64,000 nt of DNA from Nitrosopumilus sp. GTDB taxonomy: Archaea; Thermoproteota; Nitrososphaeria; Nitrososphaerales; Nitrosopumilaceae. The translations under genes were made by a program, and so were the position numbers. Positions 37,877 through 50,268 of the stretch are shown here, one piece after another. The first letter of the stretch is position 1. Each line of letters opens with the position of its first letter. Location: NCBI GenBank assembly GCA_965205425.1, contig CBDBGZ010000009.1, positions 32,001-96,000 on the forward strand. The letters run 5' to 3'. The notes beneath the pieces are model-generated. The model searched no databases. It saw only the letters and a program-made list of their open reading frames with translations, and had not been told where the DNA came from.

Positions 37877-38896
37877 TCAGATTTTGGATACTAAACTAAG
37901 AGAAAAATGCTTTTTCTCATCTAACCAAGTATGTTTTAATTCAAATCCAACATCATCAAGAAGATCATGAATTTCAGATAAGCGATATTTGTGAGAGTAT
38001 TCTGTATGAATTAATTCATCTTTGTTAAGTTTCAACTCTAAATTAGATTTAGAGACAACTACATATTGTTCAGTCATTGATTTTAGATACATTTCAATTC
38101 GTTGGTCTTTTTCATTGTAAATTGCATGATGTGAAAAATTATCTAGATTAAAATCGGCATCGAGTTCATCATTCATTCTAGACAACACGTTTAGATTAAA
38201 CGCTGCAGTTATTTTTTGTAAATCATTATATGCAGATTCAAGTATTCCTTTTTCTTTAACAAGGTCAAGACCAATTAAAAACAAATCACCGGATTTCATT
38301 GTCGAATAAACTTTTTCTAAAAACTTGTAACCATCAATTGGAGAAAAATTACCAAAGCTAGAACCTAAAAAAATTATCAGGTTTTTCTTTTCATCATATG
38401 TTCTAAGAAATTCTAAACCGCCTTCATAGGTATCAATGATTCCAGTAACTGTAAGATTTTCATAATCAGAAAGTAATTGTTCAGAACTTTCAGCAAGAAT
38501 TTCAGAAATATCAATTGGAAAATATTCTACATTATTTTGAGATGTCAAAACATCTAACAACAATCTTGTTTTAACTGAGGAACCACTTCCTAATTCAACT
38601 AGTCTAAAATCATCATCGAGAAAAGAGGGTAATTCATTTTGTAATTGTTTAAGAATAGAAATTTCGGTTCGAGTAGGATAATATTCTGGAGTTGAGCATA
38701 TTTTCTCAAATAAATCAGAGCCCTTTTTGTCATAGAAGAATTTTGGGGAGATGAACTTGGAATCCCGGTTCAAACTAGAAAAAACCTCTTCTGCAAAGGT
38801 CTTTTTAATTTGTGTTGCATGAGGTTTGAAATACCGTAGCCTAGAATCAACTACATATTTTTTGTAATCAAGGTTTTTTTGAATAATATCGGTCAA
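37877..38896 (-). CDS. egtD: L-histidine N-alpha-methyltransferase (ergothioneine pathway)
   Basis: PKFFYD..GS.LFE.I, PEYYPTRTE, ELGSGS, GSSFGNF, IHTEYSHKY. Confidence 0.92.
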   Translation of the reverse strand: MTDIIQKNLDYKKYVVDSRLRYFKPHATQIKKTFAEEVFSSLNRDSKFISPKFFYDKKGSDLFEKICSTPEYYPTRTEISILKQLQNELPSFLDDDFRLVELGSGSSVKTRLLLDVLTSQNNVEYFPIDISEILAESSEQLLSDYENLTVTGIIDTYEGGLEFLRTYDEKKNLIIFLGSSFGNFSPIDGYKFLEKVYSTMKSGDLFLIGLDLVKEKGILESAYNDLQKITAAFNLNVLSRMNDELDADFNLDNFSHHAIYNEKDQRIEMYLKSMTEQYVVVSKSNLELKLNKDELIHTEYSHKYRLSEIHDLLDDVGFELKHTWLDEKKHFSLSLVSKI

Positions 38897-38949
38897 GTAT
38901 TAACCCAGCCAATATTTGACATAAATGCTTTATCCCATTTTTTTATGTC

Positions 38950-39232
38950 TGTTCTTTCCAAAAATTATTTCGTGTCACTTTCATGAGTAATTCCTCCATA
39001 GAATACTTGGGTCTATGAGTATTTCGTTTGTTATCATCTTGGAGTGATACGCATCAGATGGTGTCTCCATGTTATCCAAGTCTAGTGCGCCATGAACTCT
39101 AATGTGATTGTACCAATGCATAAACTGCTCCACTGACTCAAAGTATTCTATTTTACACTCAAAGATATCCCAGAACTTTTCTAGCTTACCATTTGTTTGT
39201 GGATGTCTCACTCTTGTACGAGAGGTGCTTTA
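38950..39232 (-). mobile_element. 3' remnant of the IS481 element (same type as 27461-28502)
   Basis: Near-identical to the 3' end of the first copy; cut at TA by IS630 type C. Confidence 0.88.
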
Positions 39233-39942
39233 TACCCAAGATCATAAGTCTTTTCAATTTATTGTTCTTGCAAAATACTGATACATATTCAAATTAAATT
39301 TGTGGGTTCTAAAATATTCCATAACTGTATGCCTCATTTCATGAATAGATTCATAAAATTCTGATTCAACATTAACATGTTTGCACTGTCTCCAAATCTC
39401 TTCAATCATACTCAAATGTGGAGAACCTCTTGGAAGATATGCCAGTTTGACATCTTCGTTTTTACGCAGATATTCTTTTACATCATTAGCTTTGTGTTGC
39501 GGTGCTCTATCGACGATAACAAATATTTTTCCAAATTTTCTACGAGCTGCCTCTAAATAATCCATAAATGCAATTGAATTAAATTTTTCATACGATCTAA
39601 AAAAACTTTGATTATCATCAGTCACCATCCCATAAACCAAAAATCTTTGGTGTGATCCTCTCCAACGTACAATCATTCGTTGATGTACATCTGTCCAGTA
39701 TTTTTTACCAAGACGTACATCGTCTACAAATACAGACTCGTCTTGGATGAATACTGTAAAACCTTTCTTTTTTGCCTTTTCTATGCGTGAAATGATGCGG
39801 TTTTTACACTTGCGGCACACATCCTTGGATGCTGCTCGCACATGTACCTTTTGGGGAACCTTTGGTTTTAGATTCCATTTGTGCATCAAACGACGCACGT
39901 GAGTGATATGATATGTAATGCGTGTTCTGTAAAATATGAATT
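39233..39942 (-). mobile_element. IS630 type C, truncated copy
   Basis: Near-identical to the first ~710 bp of 36701-37796; transposase 5' part missing. Confidence 0.9.
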
Positions 39943-42067
39943 TAGTTAAGGCATTAAATATTTGAATATTTTAACAACTCTAACATCACCATTATCTAGT
40001 CTCTTCTGCATGTGTTTTCTCATCTCAGTTCCATTTGCAAAGAATGTGTTGGCATTGCCATTTTTTCTTCTCTCCACTGTACCTCAATTGGATTGAGTTC
40101 TGGAGTGTATGCAGGAAAATATCTGATGATTACTTTATTTTTTGGTGCTTTGAGAAATTCTTTTACTCTGAGACTTTTGTGGTATGATGCATTATCTGCA
40201 AACAATAACAATTTCTTACCAAATTGTTTTTGCAGTGATTCTAAAAAATCAAGAAATGCGTCTGTGTTTGATTTATCATAGAATCTGCAAAAAAACACAC
40301 CATCATCCCCCAATGCGCCAAATGATTGAAACTTTTCTCGAGTATAGTTGATTTTGGTTTGTGTATTTTTTCCTTTTAGATACCAGCCTTTTTTGATATT
40401 TGGAGCTATCTTGTTTGTTGACTCATCCAGACATAGTGTGGTGTATCCCAATTTGGAATATTTTTTGATACTCCTTTTTGCGTTTTTTTAAAACGGGTTT
40501 GTTCCTCTTTTGAGGCTGATTTGTGATGAGTCTGTCTTGGTTTTTTTGATGAGAATCCGATACGGTGTAGTAATTCACGCATTCCTCTTACAGAGTATAG
40601 GATATTGTATTTTTTATTCACATGTGTAATTACCATTCTTGTACTCCACATGAATTGGTTAAATCCAAACTTTTCTGGACCTGAAATTAGATCATTCCTT
40701 AATGACACTAGCTGTTTTTTATCTAAGAAACATCTAGAGCCAGAATATTCCTTACGGTGTGATGCAGATATTCCTTCTCGGTTCATTTGGTTTAACCAAT
40801 TACTAAGAGTTGATGGTATGATATCAAGACTGATGCATATTTGAGAATATGTCGGCCTTGTAGAAACCATAATAAAATAACAAAATCTAATTTTCTAATC
40901 CTGTAAGCATTGTATGCAATTAACCTGTACAACATCTCATTGTCCTGAGTTGTAACATTTCTTGATGTGACATCTCCTGACATTATCTGTTTGATCACAA
41001 AAAAGATTGTTTCAGATTTGTTTCTCTGATGGTACAATTGTACAGGAAAGTTCCTCTTCATCTCCTTTCTGTGAATTCCACTGGTTCTGTAAATTGGAAC
41101 TGTTCTATATCGAGTTGGAATCATTGCAGCTGTGTTGATCTGTTCTGCACCAACATGGTTATTCTCATCATCAAAACCCATGTCACCTAACACAATATCA
41201 ACTGGAACAATATTGTTGGTTTTGTACAACAATGGCAGAAAATCAGGATTATCATGTTGCATGTTGTGGTGTGTCATGACACAGCAAACAAGCTGTGTAT
41301 TCATGTCAGCACAAACAACAACTTTTAGGAAATTCCTGCGTAACTGTACTCTTTTTGTATAATAGTATGATGCTGTACTGTAACTGAATCCGCTACCATC
41401 AATTCCAGCTAGAACCAGTCTGACTTTTTTGTACAAAATGAATTCCTGCAACATTTTATGTAACAGATTTCCTTCCAGTCTTGCAGCTGCCTTTTGTAGT
41501 GTGGTGTAATGTGGAATGGTAGACAAACCAAGATATTCCTGAATTCCTACACATTCTTCTAAAAATTCTGTAAATCTTCTATAACTCTTTGATTCGTACT
41601 GTCGTATTGCCAAGAGTATGAGATGTGTCCAAACAGAATAGATATGATTTGATTTTGGATGTAAGAACCTGGGAATTCTGCATCTGGTGATTATATTGAG
41701 TAGTGTTTTGCACATTTTGACGTATGATGAGACCATACTGTAATCTGCAAATACAATCCTAATGGATCTAAATTAGCTAAAATGTATCACAATTGGGTTA
41801 AAATCAGATGGTTTCTACAAGGCCGAATATGTCATGTCTTGTTTGCGTAGAATTGCAGCCTTTAGTCTTATCTTTGCTTTTGCATTTTTTTCATTCTTGC
41901 ATGTTTTTCTTAAAAAATTAATGCTTGTACCTTTCATGAATTGATTCCCAGAGGAAACCTTGGATTGTCTTGTACTCTTTGACATGGTTTCATGAATTGA
42001 TTCTACGATCTAGATCTTTTGGGTTAAAATACTTGACAGTTTATTCAGAATTTATATGCCTAAACTA
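39943..42067 (-). mobile_element. IS630 type B variant, interrupted by an IS5-like element
   Basis: Same TIRs as 34859-36004; ORF pieces 40020-40451, 40406-40870 and a 5' part at ~41834-41985. Confidence 0.88.
40854..41824 (-). mobile_element. IS5-family (IS903-like) element copy 2; transposase ORF 40792-41736
   Basis: Same 17-bp TIR, 9-bp TSD GAATATGTC. Confidence 0.92.
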
Positions 42068-42222
42068 TAGTATAGATAATCTTTTAAAATATGGTCAATG
42101 GAAAAATCCATGTGTGAATGTTGATTTATACAAAAAAGCAGATCGTATGGATATGATTTTTTATAATGAAAAATTTGATTGTTATTCTACAAAACAATCG
42201 GATTAATAGATCGCAATAACAA

Positions 42223-42521
42223 GGGTGTGTCCTAAAACCATCCTCTAACATGTTTTGTAACCTCCATCAAATTAACAACTCGTATGTTGTAACAAATTAC
42301 ACGCAACGCCAACTCTTTTCTTTGAACCAACTTGTTTTTTGATGACAAGCTATTTCCAAAGATTCCTTTGAGTACTGCAAATACTGATTCAACAAGTGAC
42401 CTCTTGTGATAATGTCTGTCAAATTCATCTTGATTGTCCTGGAATAATGTTATCATTTTTTTCCATGATGCAGAGCCTTTGGGATTTCTAACCGTGTTCT
42501 TCTTTGGTTTGATGTATGGTA
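42223..42521 (-). pseudogene. 3' remnant of a second IS5-type transposase
   Basis: YHKRSLVESVF..LK and LRVICYN; truncated at the IS630 type A end; outer boundary approximate. Confidence 0.75.
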
Positions 42522-43607
42522 TAGCGAAAAGATAAAGTTCGTGAACTAAATTATTCCAAAACAAAAAACTTTTTGATCACTATGTATGGTAAAATTTGAT
42601 GAACAAGTTAGAATCACTTGAAAGCAGCATACAAAAAAAACTCCAAGGTTGCAGTAAGGATGCTTGCAGTGTTGATGATTCTAAAGGATGGAAAGGACAT
42701 ACAGTGCACTGCAAAGACATTACACCACTGCACAAGCTGGATGAGAAAATGGACGAGTCGTTTTGAGATAGATGGCCTCTACGACCACCCAAGAAGTGGC
42801 AGGCCAAGAACAATCTCCCAGACTCGAATGGATGCTATCATGTCAAAAGCAATGCTAACTTTGTTTACCCCCATAATGTTGCAACAAAGTATCTTTTATT
42901 CCACTGGAGTAAAATTTCACATAACCCACATCAGAAAGATAATGCACCAATACGGCATGTCTGCAAAAACTGCACAAAAATATCACATCAACCATGCAAG
43001 TATATCTGCTGTGAGAAGCTGGCAACAACGCACCAAAAAGAGAATTTCACGCCTAAAAAAGAAAGGATTTGTAATTGCAATGGCTGATGAAGCATTCTTT
43101 GTAAGGGATACAAAAACAGGAAAAAAGTACTGGTCACCAGTTGCCAAGAGAATATTTCTTCCATATACAGGACGACATGAGAGTCTGGCAGTGTATGGTA
43201 CAATTACAGAAAATGGCAATCAACTATTCAGAGTTTATGACAAATTCAACGCTGTAACATTTGTAGAGTACCTAAAGGAATTGCATCAGAAATATGGCAA
43301 AATTGCAATCATTTTAGATAGAGCATCAGTTCACAAATCAAAGAAGGTAAAGAAATACCTTGCAAACAATAGAGATGTCAAACTAATCTGGTTGCCAAAG
43401 GGATCACCATACTTGAAGAACATGATAGAGCAGTGCTGGAAGATAAGCAAGTATGCATTGTTGTTGGTTTCAGAGTATTATGCAATGTTTACAATAATGA
43501 ACAAGGCAGTGTCCGAATATTTCAGAGTAACCAAATTCAAGCTTGATGTTGCAAATTATATCTTTAGAAATCCTGCAAAGATGTTTGCGAACTTTTGATC
43601 GTCGCTA
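42522..43607 (+). mobile_element. IS630 type A copy 2, open transposase 42618-43598
   Basis: TAGCGA...TCGCTA ends, TA on both sides; left and right flanks come from different elements. Confidence 0.9.
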
Positions 43608-43735
43608 TAGCATTGAGAGAATAGTCTCGTATGGATACATGTCTGCCATCTTTTGATTGAAACCATTCTCTAGCGAAAGCCATGCCCTGATGTATAGAAA
43701 GAGAGGAAATGTATAAAAACAATTCACATGGATAA
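43608..43735 (+). mobile_element. orphan right-end (non-coding) remnant of the IS110 element
   Basis: Near-identical to the last ~128 bp of 54695-56013, ends at the ATAA core. Confidence 0.88.
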
Positions 43736-43830
43736 TTACATAAAATTAGTTTGGGGGTAATAGGTTTACAATCACCAATATCTATTATGTTTGAATCATG
43801 TTTACTGTGAGAAAGGAAAATCGCGGTCAT
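43736..43830 (-). pseudogene. TIR-like domain gene, N-terminal stub
   Basis: MTAIFLSHSKHD matches the TIR beta-A (F.SHS..D) motif; ATG overlaps the reconstructed Mrr stop. Confidence 0.55.
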
Positions 43831-43836
43831 TGATTT

Positions 43837-43925
43837 TCACCATTAAAATTATCTATTAGCTTCATCACCATTAAAATTATCTATTAGCTTCATCACCATT
43901 AAAATTATCTATTAGCTTCATCACC
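43837..43925. repeat. 28-bp tandem repeat x3.2 (TCACCATTAAAATTATCTATTAGCTTCA)
   Basis: Direct reading; no spacers. Confidence 0.93.
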
Positions 43926-44569
43926 TCTTGTCTATTCCACAATTCAATGCCTATTTTTGCAGCTAATTCTCTTGCCCCATTTGTGTAAACTGAATTTGTA
44001 ATTACTATGCCAACGTCTGTGTCATAATACGCTACTGCTCCATGTGCTTCTTGTACTGCACCGTTTGATACTTTTCTGTCAATAGAGTATCGCTTTGCTT
44101 GAAAAACATATTTGGTCTCATCTTTTGTTGCAAGTACATCTCCTCCTTGATCACCACTTTTTCCTGTAACTACTACGTCTGAAAATCCATTACTTTTTAA
44201 CAACTCCGCCACAAAGTCTTGAAATTCATTCCCATCTAATCTATCAGCCTGAAATATACTTAATTTTTGAATATTTGTTCTAGTTGGTTCATTTCTATTT
44301 TTAATTTGAGGTTTTGCGATATCTGCCTTTTCAATTTCAACATGAATTAATTCCATTAATTTCCTCTTTGATAATTTTTTTCTTATCATTTGATTTTGTA
44401 CAATTACTGTAGCAAAACTTTCTATATATTCTTCATCATCATATGAAAAATTTCGCATGAAATGTTGAATCACATTGGACAAAGTTCTTGTAGATTCAAA
44501 ATTATTCCAAAAGTTATTTTCTAAATCTAATGCTTTTGGAGAATAAGCGTTCCCATCAAAATATTCCAA
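43877..44569 (-). CDS. Mrr-family (type IV-like) restriction endonuclease
   Basis: LDGNEFQDFVAELL, GDQGGDV, QAKRY, VITNS.YT..A, IELW. Confidence 0.9.
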   Translation of the reverse strand: MEYFDGNAYSPKALDLENNFWNNFESTRTLSNVIQHFMRNFSYDDEEYIESFATVIVQNQMIRKKLSKRKLMELIHVEIEKADIAKPQIKNRNEPTRTNIQKLSIFQADRLDGNEFQDFVAELLKSNGFSDVVVTGKSGDQGGDVLATKDETKYVFQAKRYSIDRKVSNGAVQEAHGAVAYYDTDVGIVITNSVYTNGARELAAKIGIELWNRQEVMKLIDNFNGDEANR

Positions 44570-46228
44570 CTATCTCCATCCTCCTTTTTTATGAACTAGA
44601 GTCTGTTTTTTGATTTTATCAAATACTATAATTTTACTTCCAAATAATTTTTTGACTTTAAACACAGAGAATTTACTGTTTGATGAACATTCCCATTTTT
44701 TTATTTTTTCTAGTTCTTTGTATGCTGAAATAACATTTTGGACTTCTTGATGTTCCTTTTCTACTGGTTGTAATTGTTTACACGTATCACAAAGTTTTCC
44801 ACTAACACAACTGTTACTGTAAGATTGTTCGCACAATTCACATTTTCTAGAATCCTTCAAACAATGATTTTTCTCACAAATTCCGCAAATGGTGATATCA
44901 TTTGAGCAAAATTGTGATTTACATTCAATACATTCCGTGGAATCTAACTGGCATAGACGTTTTTCACATTTTTTACAGGCATGAAGTGACTCTTCGCAGA
45001 ATCTTTGGAAACAAATCTGACAGTTATCAGAACAAAGTCCTTCTTGGCACAGATAACATGGATTAAGTTCATTAGTACATGATGCACAAACATCCTTCTC
45101 ACATTTTACACAATGAGTTGTACAAAAATCACAACTTAGATGAGAGTTAATACAAAGATGAGTCTTTTCCATTTGATTTTTACAAATTTCACAATTTACA
45201 ATAAAATTTTTTGAAGGATCAACATATTTTATATGAACTTGTTTATTTGAAACATTATTTTTAAATTCTAAATTACAATCTGTTATACTATACGAATACA
45301 CTTTAGCTGCGACAAGTACAAAATCTACTATTGGACGATATCTTTTTTCTATTTGTTCTATCTGAATTGCTTTATCTTTAGTTACTCTTTGAACTAGTTT
45401 TCCTAATTTTTCTTGTTCTTTTGAAATTTTTTCCTCTTGTTTATTTTTCTGTTCTGCATATTTTACTTGAGTTTTATATGAACGTGCATTAGAAATTTTT
45501 CTATCATATTCATATAATTTGTTTCTCTGTAAGCTAACATCTTGATTATATTCTTTAATCCGTCTTTCATGTGCTTGGTGAACTGAATTGATATCTCTAG
45601 TTTTATTGTTTTCAGTTAAATCTGCATATTTTAGTGCTAAATATTTAATCTCATCATTTAGAAATTCTGTTGCTTTACTATATGCATAATCAATTCTAGA
45701 ATCGTTTTGTTCATACTTTATTTCTCCCAATGATTCATCAACCATTATTTCTGATGGAAATTCAAGAATCTCAAGTGTCTCTAAATCAACATCTACCCAT
45801 CTTAGCATAGCAACTCGTTTGATACTCTTTACATTGATGTTGAAAAAATATCTAACTGCCAGTTTGAATTCTTCTTCAGAATCAACACAGCTAATTTTAC
45901 AGTTATGAGTAGATATTGTGCCTACAGCTTCCTGTGGATTTTGTGTCTGTTTTTGGAGATGTGCGCCTACTACTGGAGCTTGTTTTCGAATCTGATCTAG
46001 AATAATATCTAGAAAATTACTTCCAGGTACCACAAGTTCACATGAATGAGTTTCAGCAATTCCATAATCAAATGTTACTCTTTTAGAAATTGTTCTAAAT
46101 ATTGGTTCAAATTTCTCAGGTATTGTAATAGAATACAATCCGTGGGATTCTTCCACTTCAGCTCCGATTTTCTGTAGATAATCTAGAGAAAGTTCTTTTG
46201 AAAGTTCTAAAATTTCTTTGTCATCCAT
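44570..46228 (-). CDS. YqhG-like N-terminus, coiled coil and CxxC zinc-finger array
   Basis: PGSNFLDIIL motif, long charged helix, many CxxC pairs; coupled to the SNF2 gene. Confidence 0.65.
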   Translation of the reverse strand: MDDKEILELSKELSLDYLQKIGAEVEESHGLYSITIPEKFEPIFRTISKRVTFDYGIAETHSCELVVPGSNFLDIILDQIRKQAPVVGAHLQKQTQNPQEAVGTISTHNCKISCVDSEEEFKLAVRYFFNINVKSIKRVAMLRWVDVDLETLEILEFPSEIMVDESLGEIKYEQNDSRIDYAYSKATEFLNDEIKYLALKYADLTENNKTRDINSVHQAHERRIKEYNQDVSLQRNKLYEYDRKISNARSYKTQVKYAEQKNKQEEKISKEQEKLGKLVQRVTKDKAIQIEQIEKRYRPIVDFVLVAAKVYSYSITDCNLEFKNNVSNKQVHIKYVDPSKNFIVNCEICKNQMEKTHLCINSHLSCDFCTTHCVKCEKDVCASCTNELNPCYLCQEGLCSDNCQICFQRFCEESLHACKKCEKRLCQLDSTECIECKSQFCSNDITICGICEKNHCLKDSRKCELCEQSYSNSCVSGKLCDTCKQLQPVEKEHQEVQNVISAYKELEKIKKWECSSNSKFSVFKVKKLFGSKIIVFDKIKKQTLVHKKGGWR

Positions 46229-46230
46229 TT

Positions 46231-48003
46231 TTATCTACTCGCTGACAAATCAAAATTAGCAAATACTTGATCATCAAAATCCATTATTGTATCATGCAAG
46301 TCTTTTTTGGTATGAGATAACTTATCACCTAGCGCTGAGAATTTATTTTGTGTGTCTTTTCTAGTTGTTGCTGACATGTATGATTCAAAAATTTCCGAAG
46401 GAAGTTTCTCAAATCCCTCATCTTCAAATAATAAATCAAGATCTCCGATTGTCATTTTAAATAAGTTAATTTTATCAAACAATAATTTTAGAACATATTC
46501 TTCAATACTTCCAATGATTGCTAAATTATGAATATGTACATCTTCATCCTGTCCGATTCTATGAACTCGTCCCACTCTTTGTTCTACTCGCATTGGATTC
46601 CATGGTAGATCATAATTGATCACTTTACTACAAAATTGAAAATTTTGACCCTCGCCACCAGCTTCAGTTGCAATCATAATTTGAATATCTCGTTTGAATT
46701 TACTAACTGCAGTATCCCTTTCTCTTGCAGACATTGAACCGTTAAATTTTACTGCTTCAATTCCTTCATCATCAAAATAATCAAAAATATAATCTTGTGT
46801 ATCTCTAAATTCTGTAAAGATTAGATGTTTTTCTTCTGGGTTTTCTTTAATTATATCTCGTAACCTCTGCATTTTAGAATCTACTTTGATTTTGTCAGCT
46901 AACTCCAAAATACTCTCAAGTTCATCTACATACTGAGGGAATTGTTGTTTTTTGTTCTTAATTGCACCTCTCAAAGCAGATGTACTGCTTGAAATTTGCC
47001 TCTGAAGTGTCATTAGAGGTAAAACAAAGTTTCTTCCTCCTTTTTGATCAAGCCATAATTTTCTAACAAATTCCGTAGCATGTTGATACAGTTGACTTTC
47101 ATATTCAGATGGTTCTAAAAGATGGGTTCTTGGGATTCTGTCTGTAAATTCAATGTATTCTTTTACTTCTTCTCTAGTTGTTCTGATAATTACTTGTCTT
47201 AGAATTTCTTGTAATTCAAATCTTCTTTGAGGAATAATCTTTTGTGCCTTTTTATCACTTGTAAAACTTGATGCAAAATCTCTCCAAGACCCAAGATATC
47301 CTGGTTTGATTATTTCAACTAGGTTGTATAATTCTTCTAAATTATTTTGAATGGGTGTTGCAGATAATAAGAAAATAAATTTTTTCTGTAATTCTCTTAC
47401 AAACTGATTGGCTTGTGTAGTTGATTTTTTTAATCTATGAGCTTCATCTACAATCACTACGTCCCATTCAATATATTTTAACAAATTTGCATTTCGTGGT
47501 TGAATTGCTGATGAAATTGAAGAAATTAGCATAGTATGTTTATCATACCCTTCAAATCTAGAATCATCTTTGTTAACTATAAAATCAAGTTCAAATTTCG
47601 ATTTTAGTTCTTCTTGCCATTGACTTCGTAATGAAGGTGGAGTAAGAATTAATGCATTGTGTATCATTCCAGTTACAAAATATTCTTTTAGTAAAATTCC
47701 TGCTTCAACGGTTTTTCCTAAACCTACTTCATCAGCTAAAATCACTCTACCATTAAGATTATTTTTTACAAGTTTAGCTGCCATGATTTGATGATCAAAA
47801 ATTGAGATAGTCGAATTTAGTGAATTTTGAATTGTTAGTCCACGAGATTGCTGTGCATTAATAATTTCATACGCCTTTAGAAGATTTGACAGATCATCAG
47901 ATTTGTTAAAGAGTAATCGTCTTAGTTTATTTTTTACTCCATAGGTATCAAAATACCTCAATTCCACTCTATTACCGCTATTCCAATCTGACAAAATTTC
48001 CAC
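46231..48003 (-). CDS. SNF2-family ATPase/helicase (YqhH/RapA-like)
   Basis: ILADEVGLGKT, DEAH, SATP, GGEGQNFQ, YDLPWNP..EQRVGRVHRIGQ. Confidence 0.93.
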   Translation of the reverse strand: MEILSDWNSGNRVELRYFDTYGVKNKLRRLLFNKSDDLSNLLKAYEIINAQQSRGLTIQNSLNSTISIFDHQIMAAKLVKNNLNGRVILADEVGLGKTVEAGILLKEYFVTGMIHNALILTPPSLRSQWQEELKSKFELDFIVNKDDSRFEGYDKHTMLISSISSAIQPRNANLLKYIEWDVVIVDEAHRLKKSTTQANQFVRELQKKFIFLLSATPIQNNLEELYNLVEIIKPGYLGSWRDFASSFTSDKKAQKIIPQRRFELQEILRQVIIRTTREEVKEYIEFTDRIPRTHLLEPSEYESQLYQHATEFVRKLWLDQKGGRNFVLPLMTLQRQISSSTSALRGAIKNKKQQFPQYVDELESILELADKIKVDSKMQRLRDIIKENPEEKHLIFTEFRDTQDYIFDYFDDEGIEAVKFNGSMSARERDTAVSKFKRDIQIMIATEAGGEGQNFQFCSKVINYDLPWNPMRVEQRVGRVHRIGQDEDVHIHNLAIIGSIEEYVLKLLFDKINLFKMTIGDLDLLFEDEGFEKLPSEIFESYMSATTRKDTQNKFSALGDKLSHTKKDLHDTIMDFDDQVFANFDLSASR

Positions 48004-48061
48004 TTATTGCTAACCTCATCTTCTCATATTTTTGCTTATTTAGTTTAGGCATGCAGTCTAT

Positions 48062-48203
48062 TAGACGTCTTGCGTAATTATTTCTAGGCATGAATTTTGT
48101 TGCAGGATTTTTCAAATTGGTTGAGAAATTTGAATTTTCAGGTATGAATTCTGTTAAAATACAAAATTTGAGAAAAAATTTCTATAATTACGCAAGTGGT
48201 CTA
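48062..48203. mobile_element. 142-bp MITE type 3
   Basis: 20-bp TIR TAGAC(GT/CA)CTTGCGTAATTAT (18/20), non-coding interior. Confidence 0.75.
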
Positions 48204-49242
48204 TTGTACAAAAATTAGGTCGTCCTAAGATTAGACATTGTGTAAAGGAATACTATAGACTATATCGATCTAAAATTATGAGGAAATATCTTACTGAGAA
48301 ATCAATACGTTACATCATTGCACAGTGTAAACAAGGGTCGTAGAACAGCTACAATTGCATATGAAACGAATGTAACACAGAGACATATTCAACGTATTTG
48401 GGCAGAATTTCGTAAAACAGGTGGTACCACATGTACAAAAAACTCCTGGAAGACATTCATCAGCACCATCAGAGACCCAAACCAATCTAGTATTACAAAA
48501 ACACAAAGAACAACCAATAGGTGCAGTACGTCTTACAAAAGAACTCAAAGAAAAAGGTCACATTATAAGTTACCATAAAGTATACCAGATAATGAAGGCG
48601 AATCATCTATCAATTCCATCCCCTGCAAAATCACGTAAACGCAAATGGGTAAGATTTGAACGCAAGTATTCCAATGCAATGTGGCATGTGGATTGGCATA
48701 TGATGAAGGACCCACGCTTTAGAGGGCTGAATCTAGTCACATATCTTGATGATTCTTCAAGGTGTATCATGGCAGCACAAATATTCACTCAAGCTACATC
48801 AGAAAATGCAGCACGAGTCTTGTATAAAGCAGTCAAAAAGTTTGGTGTCCCTGCTACAATACTTTCAGATAACGGATTATGCTTTGTTGGAAGACATCAA
48901 AAAAAACCAAAAGGTTCATGGAGTCCAACACTTTTTGAAGAAGCATTGCTAGACATGGGAATTGAGTTGATAAACTCCAGACCATATCATCCACAGACAA
49001 ATGGCAAGCTAGAACGATTCCACAGAAGTATTGAAGAAGAGATATTTCACTATGATAGTCTGTCTGAATATGTCAAATATTACAATGAACGCAGACTACA
49101 CTTTTCACTAGATATTGATGCAGGTGAACGACCACTAGATGCATTTAAAGCAAGAATTGCCACAAAAACGATCAGAGATGATAACCCCAATTGGGCTGAA
49201 GAGGATACAAATGGATAAGCGACATAATTTCCGTATAGTACA
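48204..49242 (+). mobile_element. IS481-family element (second type), transposase 48278-49218 with two frameshifts
   Basis: MWHVDW, LSDNG, HPQTNGKLERF; right end ..GTACA; left end approximate. Confidence 0.82.
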
Positions 49243-49299: not shown

Positions 49300-50268
49300 T
49301 TGTTGAGTGAAATCCTAAAAGTTGAACATTTAAAAAAATATTTTACCAAAAAAGGAATGTTTGGAACAAAATCATCAACAGTTAGAGCAACAGATGATGT
49401 TTCATTTTCATTAAAAGAAGGAGAAGTTTTTGTTTTAGCTGGAGAATCTGGCTCTGGAAAATCAACTATTGCAAAATTAATTTTAAAGTCAATTGAATTA
49501 GATTCAGGTAAAATATTTTTTGACGACCAAGAAATTGATAATCAAAAAGAAAACTTGGCAAAAATTAGAATGAACTGTCAAATGATTCACCAAGATCCAT
49601 ATGATTCCATCAATCCAAGAATGAGGATTGGAGACATTGTGTCAGAGCCACTAGAGATTCACAAAATTGGTAATAAAGAAGACAGGTACAAGAGAGTTAT
49701 CGAAGTATTACAAGAAGTAAAGCTTGAACCTGCAGAAGATATTGTAAAAAGATATCCTCACATGTTATCAGGAGGGCAAAGACAAAGAGTTGTTTTAGCA
49801 CGAGCACTTGCATTAAAACCAAAAGTAATTCTTGCTGATGAACCAGTCTCCATGTTAGATGTATCCATCAGAACAGAGATGCTAGAATTGATGCAAGAGT
49901 TACAACAAAAATACAATATTTCATTTATCTACATCACACATGATTTAGCAACTGCAAGATATTTTGGTCAAAGAATAGGTATTTTGTATATGGGGAAAAT
50001 TGTAGAAATGGGTCCAATAGATCAAGTATTAGAAAAACCCAGACATCCATATACACAGGCACTAATTGATGCAATTTCAGAGCCAGATCCAGAAAACTTG
50101 CACCGAGAAAGAAAAATTAGAATTAATGAGCCCAAGGATGTAGATGTCTGCCAAGGATGTAGATTCAGAGCAAGATGTTCCTATGTAATTGAGAAATGTA
50201 CAAGCGAACCTAATCTAGAGAAAATAAACGATGAACATTATTCTGCATGTTTTGTAAAACTAGATTAG
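49300..50268 (+). CDS. oligopeptide/dipeptide ABC transporter ATP-binding protein (OppF/DppF-like)
   Basis: GESGSGKST, LSGGQRQR, HPYTQAL, GCRF..RC. Confidence 0.93.
   Translation: MLSEILKVEHLKKYFTKKGMFGTKSSTVRATDDVSFSLKEGEVFVLAGESGSGKSTIAKLILKSIELDSGKIFFDDQEIDNQKENLAKIRMNCQMIHQDPYDSINPRMRIGDIVSEPLEIHKIGNKEDRYKRVIEVLQEVKLEPAEDIVKRYPHMLSGGQRQRVVLARALALKPKVILADEPVSMLDVSIRTEMLELMQELQQKYNISFIYITHDLATARYFGQRIGILYMGKIVEMGPIDQVLEKPRHPYTQALIDAISEPDPENLHRERKIRINEPKDVDVCQGCRFRARCSYVIEKCTSEPNLEKINDEHYSACFVKLD

Follow-up and report, generated by a model that had tools for sequence, protein, structure and literature searches.

In a 64,000-nucleotide stretch of DNA from Nitrosopumilus sp. (GenBank assembly GCA_965205425.1, contig CBDBGZ010000009.1, positions 32,001 to 96,000; hereafter the window), we found a minus-strand operon whose conserved unit is three genes, encoding a SWI2/SNF2 ATPase, a partner protein and an Mrr-family nuclease, and not the four genes that a first-pass annotation of the same DNA had proposed. 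Judged by sequence and by structural models, the SNF2 ATPase and the partner are the two halves of a single split helicase of the RapA/BrxHII/HmaA type, which would make the cassette a variant of a known helicase-nuclease effector. We put at about 0.6 the probability that the cassette is a methylase-free, split form of the Hma/BREX-related (BR) helicase-nuclease effectors that would defend the cell against invading DNA.

By its sequence, the 590-residue SNF2 protein is the motor core of a YqhH/RapA-group enzyme. It has the Pfam domains SNF2-rel_dom and Helicase_C, and DEVGLGKT (residues 91-98), DEAH (186-189) and motif VI (475-482) are invariant in its kin, in agreement with the intact ATPase first described. 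Residues 25-527 align to positions 110-635 of the RapA profile (of 959), with 63 further residues beyond; the protein starts about 25 residues ahead of profile position 110 and lacks both the N-terminal domains and the C-terminal region of RapA. The top NCBIfam matches were DrmD, DpdE and RapA, every score being far under its cut-off (207 bits for the RapA profile against a cut-off of 576), and the ZorD profile gave 100 bits against a cut-off of 1500. Over 505 aa, the protein is 40% identical to the Brevibacillus SNF2 protein whose gene lies ahead of one annotated as YqhG. In three Mrr-less loci (L034, L035 and L037), SNF2 is 721-725 aa long with a CxxC-bearing N-terminal extension.

The partner had no match in Pfam, PADLOC or NCBIfam. 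In an AlphaFold model with a predicted local distance difference test score (pLDDT) of 86-87, we found that residues 1 to ~335 correspond to the C-terminal region of RapA, with an alpha+beta domain followed by a beta-sheet with a long coiled-coil insert; residues ~345-485 form a Cys/His array that from its sequence is probably multi-zinc, and residues ~490-552 form a small basic domain. Foldseek returned four matches under E 0.001, all of them to E. coli RapA and in both searches (E 2-17e-5). Residues 1-316 superpose in order on RapA 707-968 over ~235 residues, with a VIA Z of 9.2-9.6 that is equalled by generic coiled coils and a root-mean-square deviation of 6.3-9.6 (11.8 in one row). The best 50 matches of a wide structural search were nothing but coiled coils, and a PDB sequence search with a broad profile (A5) gave coiled-coil and weak RING matches only. 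We kept the RapA assignment because the ~235-residue alignment spans both domains and the Foldseek matches are all RapA.

The assignment of the partner to the YqhG superfamily is transitive. The window protein does not match Pfam PF11079 (YqhG), the cut-off of which was passed by 1 of 77 scanned relatives (P0046, 36 bits, with three more giving weak scores); P0046 matches the kin profile at E 3e-75. When a narrow alignment (A3) was compared with Brevibacillus YqhG by hhalign, the probability was 1.6%. Only profile A5 links the partner to this protein; A5 matches Bacillus YqhG (confirmed by Pfam) and the annotated Brevibacillus YqhG with E values of 1e-8 and 2e-21, and both of these genes sit behind SNF2 genes 36-40% identical to that of the window. 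The YqhGH-like core that the first-pass annotation had suspected is borne out by these matches, and on sequence and model evidence we identify YqhG as the C-terminal region of a RapA-type helicase, detached into a protein of its own. With a profile built on 32 kin, we collected 1002 clusters at E up to 0.001, many of the weak ones probably through cysteines alone; we discounted locus L124 and four order-level matches limited to the Cys array (in genomes G053, G304, G363 and G368), which are probably noise from Cys-rich or coiled-coil segments. Among the relatives, P0009 (885 aa) has about 11 perfect repeats of a 30-residue Cys unit, which is either a recent array expansion or an assembly artefact, and P0060 (1046 aa) is partner-like with a vWA domain in its N-terminal part.

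Since SNF2 covers RapA 110-635 and the partner RapA 707-968, the two genes tile RapA minus its N-terminal domains. When SNF2 was modelled in complex with partner residues 1-340, the score was 0.74, as compared to 0.00 for the best of three controls; of the solved pairs, 116 of 157 reached the score mark, as did 2 of 215 mismatched pairs. The runs agreed in at least 93% of contacts, partner pLDDT was at least 79, and SNF2 residues 14-24 are predicted to pair with partner strand 300-308. The score may reflect likeness to RapA rather than binding, since the halves of a split gene can pass that way.

The nuclease has an N-terminal helical domain and an intact catalytic motif, and GDQG.D (residues 139-144) and Q.K (157-159) are invariant in its kin, as expected from the Mrr-type motif first noticed. 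It has the type IV feature of an Mrr_cat domain with a D...QxK motif and matches the ZorD C-terminal profile (E 6e-21); an Mrr_N domain was absent from its Pfam scan.

To describe the operon in other genomes, we used 37 of 40 collected loci, leaving out the bacterial L010, L041 and L042; seven of the 37 are named Nitrosopumilaceae or Thaumarchaeota and the remainder were placed by similarity. SNF2 is directly upstream of the partner in 33/33 loci having upstream sequence. Mrr follows the pair in 22 of the 24 thaumarchaeal loci with at least 700 bp downstream, some of which are near-duplicates and not all independent; the Mrr gene of L003 carries a frameshift, and in L008 a further gene lies in between. 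Junctions measure –10 to +28 nt in 21 of the 22 Mrr-bearing loci. Some Mrr match is found in 22/251 genomes of the family; near-full-length Mrr (E < 1e-79) is found in exactly five, those with the long partner, and is adjacent to it. The triplet is also present on three haloarchaeal plasmids, among 9 of 11 matching plasmid regions that we examined: in Halorhabdus tiamatea, Haloferax lucentense and Halocatena salina the partners are 1095, 1245 and 676 aa long with 62, 72 and 23 CxxC/H motifs, respectively, and each is followed by an Mrr_cat gene above cut-off. The co-occurrence elsewhere, the lack of which the first-pass annotation had named as a refutation, is seen in two archaeal phyla. On H. 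lucentense pSVX82-3, the 1245-aa partner gene (L074:8980-12717) is missing from the gene table, which lists three short opposite-strand open reading frames (ORFs) there. Two plasmid loci have a common fourth gene of ~297 aa with no Pfam match (L073:13301-14197, L074:13737-14630) and a divergent pair made up of a 280-aa gene without an assigned family and an SF2 helicase (L073:3275-7066, L074:3347-7069).

The TIR gene, which had been put forward as a component of the system, is real but is an independent passenger. In L011 it is full-length (211 aa; L011:6800-7435) and encodes a TIR domain, a glycine-rich hydrophobic segment and a zinc ribbon; Pfam TIR_2 is below cut-off, Atlas TIR clusters match at 0.96 and there is no PADLOC match. 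L011 is the only related locus in which TIR follows the triplet, and the fourth gene otherwise varies (HNH, HamA, UvrD and others). The TIR family is found in 10/250 genomes of the Nitrosopumilaceae and in none of them beside the partner gene; only G306 also has a partner, ~235 kb apart. Both this count of 10 and the count of 22 for Mrr include genome G1124, on which no conclusion rests. By Atlas clusters, the TIR/glycine-rich/zinc-ribbon family, which is scattered in Nitrosopumilaceae, also occurs in other archaea and in bacteria. Mrr and TIR genes near an integrase-like gene in G151 are unrelated to the triplet, with no SNF2 or partner there. In the window, the stub begins with the TIR-like motif that the first-pass annotation had read, and this part stood; the gene is TIR for 18 codons only, because an insertion-sequence (IS) end (43732-43776, multi-copy) truncates it, and the rest of the ORF is read-through into that element. 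A tblastn search of the assembly found no remainder of the TIR gene.

The full-length partner is found in 5/401 genomes of the order and 5/251 of the family, the window genome included, and in 0/36 sampled congeners. In 5/5 single-contig congeners, 94-218 bp separate the flanking genes (a 339-aa ORF at 37877-38896 and an ABC ATPase at 49300), against 10.4 kb in the window genome. This patchy spread and the site that is empty in 5/5 congeners make the cassette accessory, and exclude the conservation as core syntenic genes that the first-pass annotation had named as a refutation; the GC content of the cassette (0.31) does not differ from that of its flanks (0.30-0.32). When we scanned 132 neighbouring ORFs (at least 110 aa, within 5 kb) of 20 loci with PADLOC, we found clear defence neighbours at four: a type IV Mrr at L007, a type I restriction-modification system at L014, a type IIG enzyme at L019 and Hachiman at L028. 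CARF or HNH genes lie near four further loci (L011, L024, L035 and L036). The suggested neighbourhood check thus supports defence at 4/20 loci and shows nothing clear at the rest, bar the four with CARF or HNH genes.

The window copy of the operon is damaged by a 33-residue deletion in the partner, a 28-bp triplication and the truncated TIR gene (Table 1). The four minus-strand genes and their 2-nt (SNF2-partner) and 0-nt (partner-Mrr) junctions lie where they were first drawn, as does the IS debris around them: IS630-, IS5/DDE- and IS481-like transposase genes flank the operon, the last being the family name that we assume for the transposase at 48421..49218. At the Mrr-TIR junction, a 28-bp unit repeated 3.2 times (43837-43925) has opened a gap of 46 nt; the repeat alters the last residues of Mrr only. 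The relative L011 (98% identical to the window in SNF2, 89% in the partner and 93% in Mrr) has a single copy of this unit and a 4-nt ATGA overlap between Mrr and TIR, so the overlap that the first-pass annotation had reconstructed was right; what it had missed were the split RapA-type helicase, the 33-residue deletion and the limit of TIR to 18 codons. The deleted residues are present in 31/31 other aligned kin, and the 99-bp in-frame deletion is bounded by short direct repeats. Two runs from the same study contain a 4193-base public contig that spans the deletion with zero differences, and public contigs stop at the 28-bp repeat in three runs; no RNA data set was listed among the holders. Because public contigs carry or break at them, the deletion and the repeat look real, and we ruled out an assembly artefact, with the reservation that the assembly itself may derive from runs X1 and X2. 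A 43778-48200 joint (run X5) was dropped as a cassette-free allele, as its side is 27 bases and its end is a multi-copy IS end.

The window deletion overlaps the deletion of an Mrr-less clade at about residues 421-431 (numbering of the 585-aa form), a hint from sequence that this segment has a bearing on Mrr and that the window copy is impaired by its loss. Given the widely varying array lengths, the deletion may instead be tolerated; overall, the window copy may be impaired in function. The genome is rich in insertion sequences, and several elements of the 5-kb nest (38948-43776) have at least 10 near-identical copies, some of them nested. A 142-bp non-coding element lies upstream of SNF2, 58 bp from its start, and the operon promoter may be displaced or replaced.

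Table 1. Coordinates of the operon, its lesions and neighbouring elements in the window, and of the Dnd-linked cassettes in related loci.
Feature	Position	Strand	Remarks
SWI2/SNF2 ATPase gene	46231..48003	-	590 aa, intact; motor core only
YqhG-superfamily partner gene	44570..46228	-	552 aa; AlphaFold, Foldseek, VIA; YqhG link through relatives
Mrr-family PD-(D/E)xK nuclease gene	43877..44569	-	230 aa; Pfam Mrr_cat, E 3e-28
TIR-like ORF from 43830; TIR portion of 18 codons	43777..43830	-	
28-bp tandem triplication	43837..43925	.	erases Mrr/TIR stop-start overlap
In-frame 99-bp (33-aa) deletion site in Cys array	45036..45037	-	alignment to kin
Nest of multi-copy insertion sequences and IS ends	38948..43776	.	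Pfam DDE_3, DDE_Tnp_1; many genomic copies 85-100% identical
142-bp multi-copy element, 20-bp inverted ends	48062..48203	.	six further copies, ~97%
Integrase-core (rve) transposase	48421..49218	+	Pfam rve
Dnd-linked cassettes	L059:6512-11836, L060:6137-12849, L061:4858-10185, L062:6107-12864		

The closest known relatives are HmaA and the Type-1 BR helicases. HmaA alone restricts T4, and both its motif VI and its nicking nuclease are required (accessible part of PMC11232893). BrxHII and BREX-related helicases contain TUDOR, SWI2/SNF2 and inactive restriction-endonuclease (REase)-like domains and a five-stranded sheet with a coiled-coil insert, which is otherwise found in RapA only, and the Type-1 BR helicases end in an active REase (accessible part of PMC12839542). 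The window proteins have the same order of parts: SNF2 core, alpha+beta (inactive REase-like) domain, coiled-coil-insert sheet and putative PD-(D/E)xK nuclease. The SNF2 core and the two RapA-like alpha+beta domains are present across two window genes, as compared with RapA structures and not with an HmaA model, and haloarchaeal split relatives adjoin DUF499 or DUF1156 genes. In contrast to HmaA and the Type-1 BR helicases, the window has three polypeptides, no TUDOR domain and a long Cys array, and its nuclease is an intact-motif Mrr in a separate gene, neither NOV_C nor fused. We found no DUF499 ATPase or DUF1156 N6-methylase in the window region, where the first-pass annotation had likewise seen no methylase, or among the 132 scanned neighbour ORFs, and no methylase is conserved beside the triplet.

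Other systems share fewer parts. E. coli RapA (HepA) is matched by SNF2 on its profile and by the partner on its structure over the ranges given above; however, the window form is split, lacks the N-terminal domains, has an extra Cys array and nuclease, and is accessory and not core. The yqhH-yqhG pair of Bacillales (PF11079) has the same two-gene split and order, a ~560-590-aa SNF2 gene directly before a YqhG-superfamily gene; unlike the window partner, the YqhG proteins examined have neither Cys array nor Mrr. Zorya I ZorD also joins SNF2 to Mrr, but the window SNF2 scores better to the DrmD and BrxH profiles, SNF2 and Mrr are unfused in a set of three genes, and ZorA, ZorB and ZorC gave no matches among the neighbours of the window or the 20 loci, which agrees with the missing ZorAB partner first reported. 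DISARM DrmD, BREX-3 BrxHII and DpdE are RapA-group SNF2 helicases and the best PADLOC and NCBIfam matches; however, scores are far below cut-off, the window protein has ~590 aa against their 870-1050, and their system genes are not nearby. PADLOC and NCBIfam scans matched no named system. In the published literature, we found neither a description of the triplet nor one that treats YqhG as a fragment of RapA, and the triplet is apparently unnamed. The words 'split' and 'YqhG' occur nowhere in the main text of PMC12839542, whose supplements may list split forms, and the accessible part of PMC3710099 has nothing on this module. The claim of an undescribed combination holds for the apparently unnamed triplet; as a variant of a known helicase-nuclease effector, it brings no new principle.

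Split pairs also occur in other settings. Six of the nine haloarchaeal partners are short, with 1-2 CxxC/H motifs; two of these pairs are beside DUF499, one is beside DUF1156, one is beside a large AAA ATPase and two are beside neither annotation. L077, L078, L080 and L081 are BREX-related loci (DUF499 ATPase or DUF1156 methylase) in which the helicase is split into SNF2 and a 385-430-aa YqhG-like gene. Four Nitrosopumilaceae genomes have an array-less partner of 263-276 aa near dnd genes (identified with Pfam in L059 and L060 and from likeness in L061 and L062) in a cassette with the order SNF2, array-less YqhG-like, ParB-like, helix-turn-helix (HTH)-like and metallo-beta-lactamase (MBL), which lies directly downstream of the Dnd genes in L060 and L062. 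This SNF2-YqhG-ParB-HTH-MBL cassette is a candidate effector module distinct from DndFGH and PbeABCD; no such module is described in the accessible part of PMC10853773. Within the bacterial phylum of genome G426, PF11079 was found in 0/151 genomes (a B. subtilis control was positive) and A5 matched 19/301, and we examined the regions of 15 matches in 14 genomes. Loci of this phylum (L113:8299-12815, L114:6118-12942, L121:863-10804 and L010) have an SNF2-Ser/Thr kinase fusion, or the pair followed by kinase-TPR genes; L121 runs on into a PP2C gene and a second kinase, a set that presumably resembles a TerY-P-like triad.

If the cassette is a BR-type effector, the SNF2 core and the YqhG-like partner would reassemble into one RapA/BrxHII/HmaA-type double-stranded DNA translocase, with homology shown by fold and binding predicted. 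The Cys array would bind zinc and work as a sensor or tether. The separate Mrr would be the counterpart of the nuclease fused to HmaA, the Type-1 BR helicases and ZorD; it may dock and be activated in an ATP-dependent manner, and would nick or cut DNA after the motor has engaged a trigger, for instance viral or plasmid DNA that is modified, replicating or of abnormal structure. As there is no cognate methylase, self would be spared other than by a host mark, through activation control or a preference of Mrr for modified DNA.

Several observations weigh against this assignment. About half of the 20 scanned loci have no clear defence neighbour, and the count has no background control. One thaumarchaeal sub-clade (L030, L035, also L034) has an Mrr-less pair with a partner ~60 residues shorter, and array-bearing bacterial partners come with Ser/Thr kinases, as kinase-SNF2 fusions or kinase-TPR genes, and no Mrr, so an array does not imply Mrr. 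A quick SNF2 tree (53 cores, after 7 near-duplicates of 60 were removed; careful search unfinished) groups by host and places haloarchaeal and thaumarchaeal triplets apart, the former nested with haloarchaeal short forms (100) and the latter sister to Dnd-linked forms (99); on this tree, the triplet would have either arisen twice or been repeatedly reduced. The Brevibacillus pair is beside gcvT, among housekeeping genes, and mild DNA-damage roles are described for Bacillus yqhH (accessible parts of PMC7385302 and PMC10054049). These last points would fit a role in genome maintenance, in which a split RapA-like motor clears stalled RNA polymerase (RNAP) or other protein-DNA blocks and Mrr nicks DNA for repair. 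RapA is the sole significant fold match, the SNF2 protein is 40% identical to its YqhG-adjacent Brevibacillus counterpart, B. subtilis HepA (YqhH) is among the RNAP-interacting translocases, B. thuringiensis yqhH affects UV survival (PMC7385302, PMC10054049), and RapA minus its N-terminal domain still binds RNAP (accessible part of PMC8501970). However, a cassette found in 5/251 family genomes, with an otherwise empty site, plasmid-borne haloarchaeal copies and tight linkage to a restriction-type nuclease, makes this role unlikely.

We hold it to be just as improbable that the motor pair is general-purpose and that Mrr is an independent type IV restriction enzyme merely in the same operon. The companions of the pair vary widely and may be lacking altogether, 17 other family genomes have related Mrr domains but not the pair, and the triplets are not one clade on the quick SNF2 tree; against this stand the short junctions in 21/22 Mrr-bearing loci, the one-to-one genome co-occurrence of this subfamily of Mrr with the long partner and the same gene order in two archaeal phyla. 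A four-gene system in which TIR is a required signalling or NAD-depleting effector would account for the ATGA-coupled full-length gene of L011, but the single related locus with TIR and the varying fourth gene contradict it as a general rule and make it very improbable. Similarly, there is little to recommend a selfish addiction-type cassette, in which a toxic Mrr is checked by the zinc-array partner with no antiviral benefit. It would agree with the absence of a methylase, the translational coupling and the shortened array of the Mrr-less sub-clade; however, it needs no ATP-driven motor, and the closest tested relative, HmaA, is antiviral and non-toxic (PMC11232893).

Starting from the split BR-type effector, a broader scheme can be drawn, which we offer tentatively and consider possible rather than probable. 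The YqhH-YqhG split RapA may be a portable motor that archaeal defence systems combine with recognition modules, which would be interchangeable. Array-less forms would serve self-marking systems, namely DUF499/DUF1156 methylation in haloarchaea and Dnd phosphorothioation with the ParB-HTH-MBL set in Nitrosopumilaceae; long-array forms would need no host mark, would sense invader DNA or protein via the length-variable array and would fire a docked Mrr. If true, archaea would have a new antiviral system that works without a methylase, and the YqhG family would gain a function.

The window copy, because it is damaged, is a poor test object, while intact haloarchaeal copies, such as those of Halocatena salina NZ_CP096023 and Halorhabdus pHTIA, make the module directly testable in Haloferax. 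Taken together, these data give a structural identity to YqhG, a family of unknown function. They also define a compact module, a candidate for defence, that ammonia-oxidising archaea and plasmids of haloarchaea carry and whose partner is covered by no model of PADLOC, Pfam or NCBIfam. If active, the module would reveal how self can be spared by a BREX-related helicase-nuclease that has no methylase.

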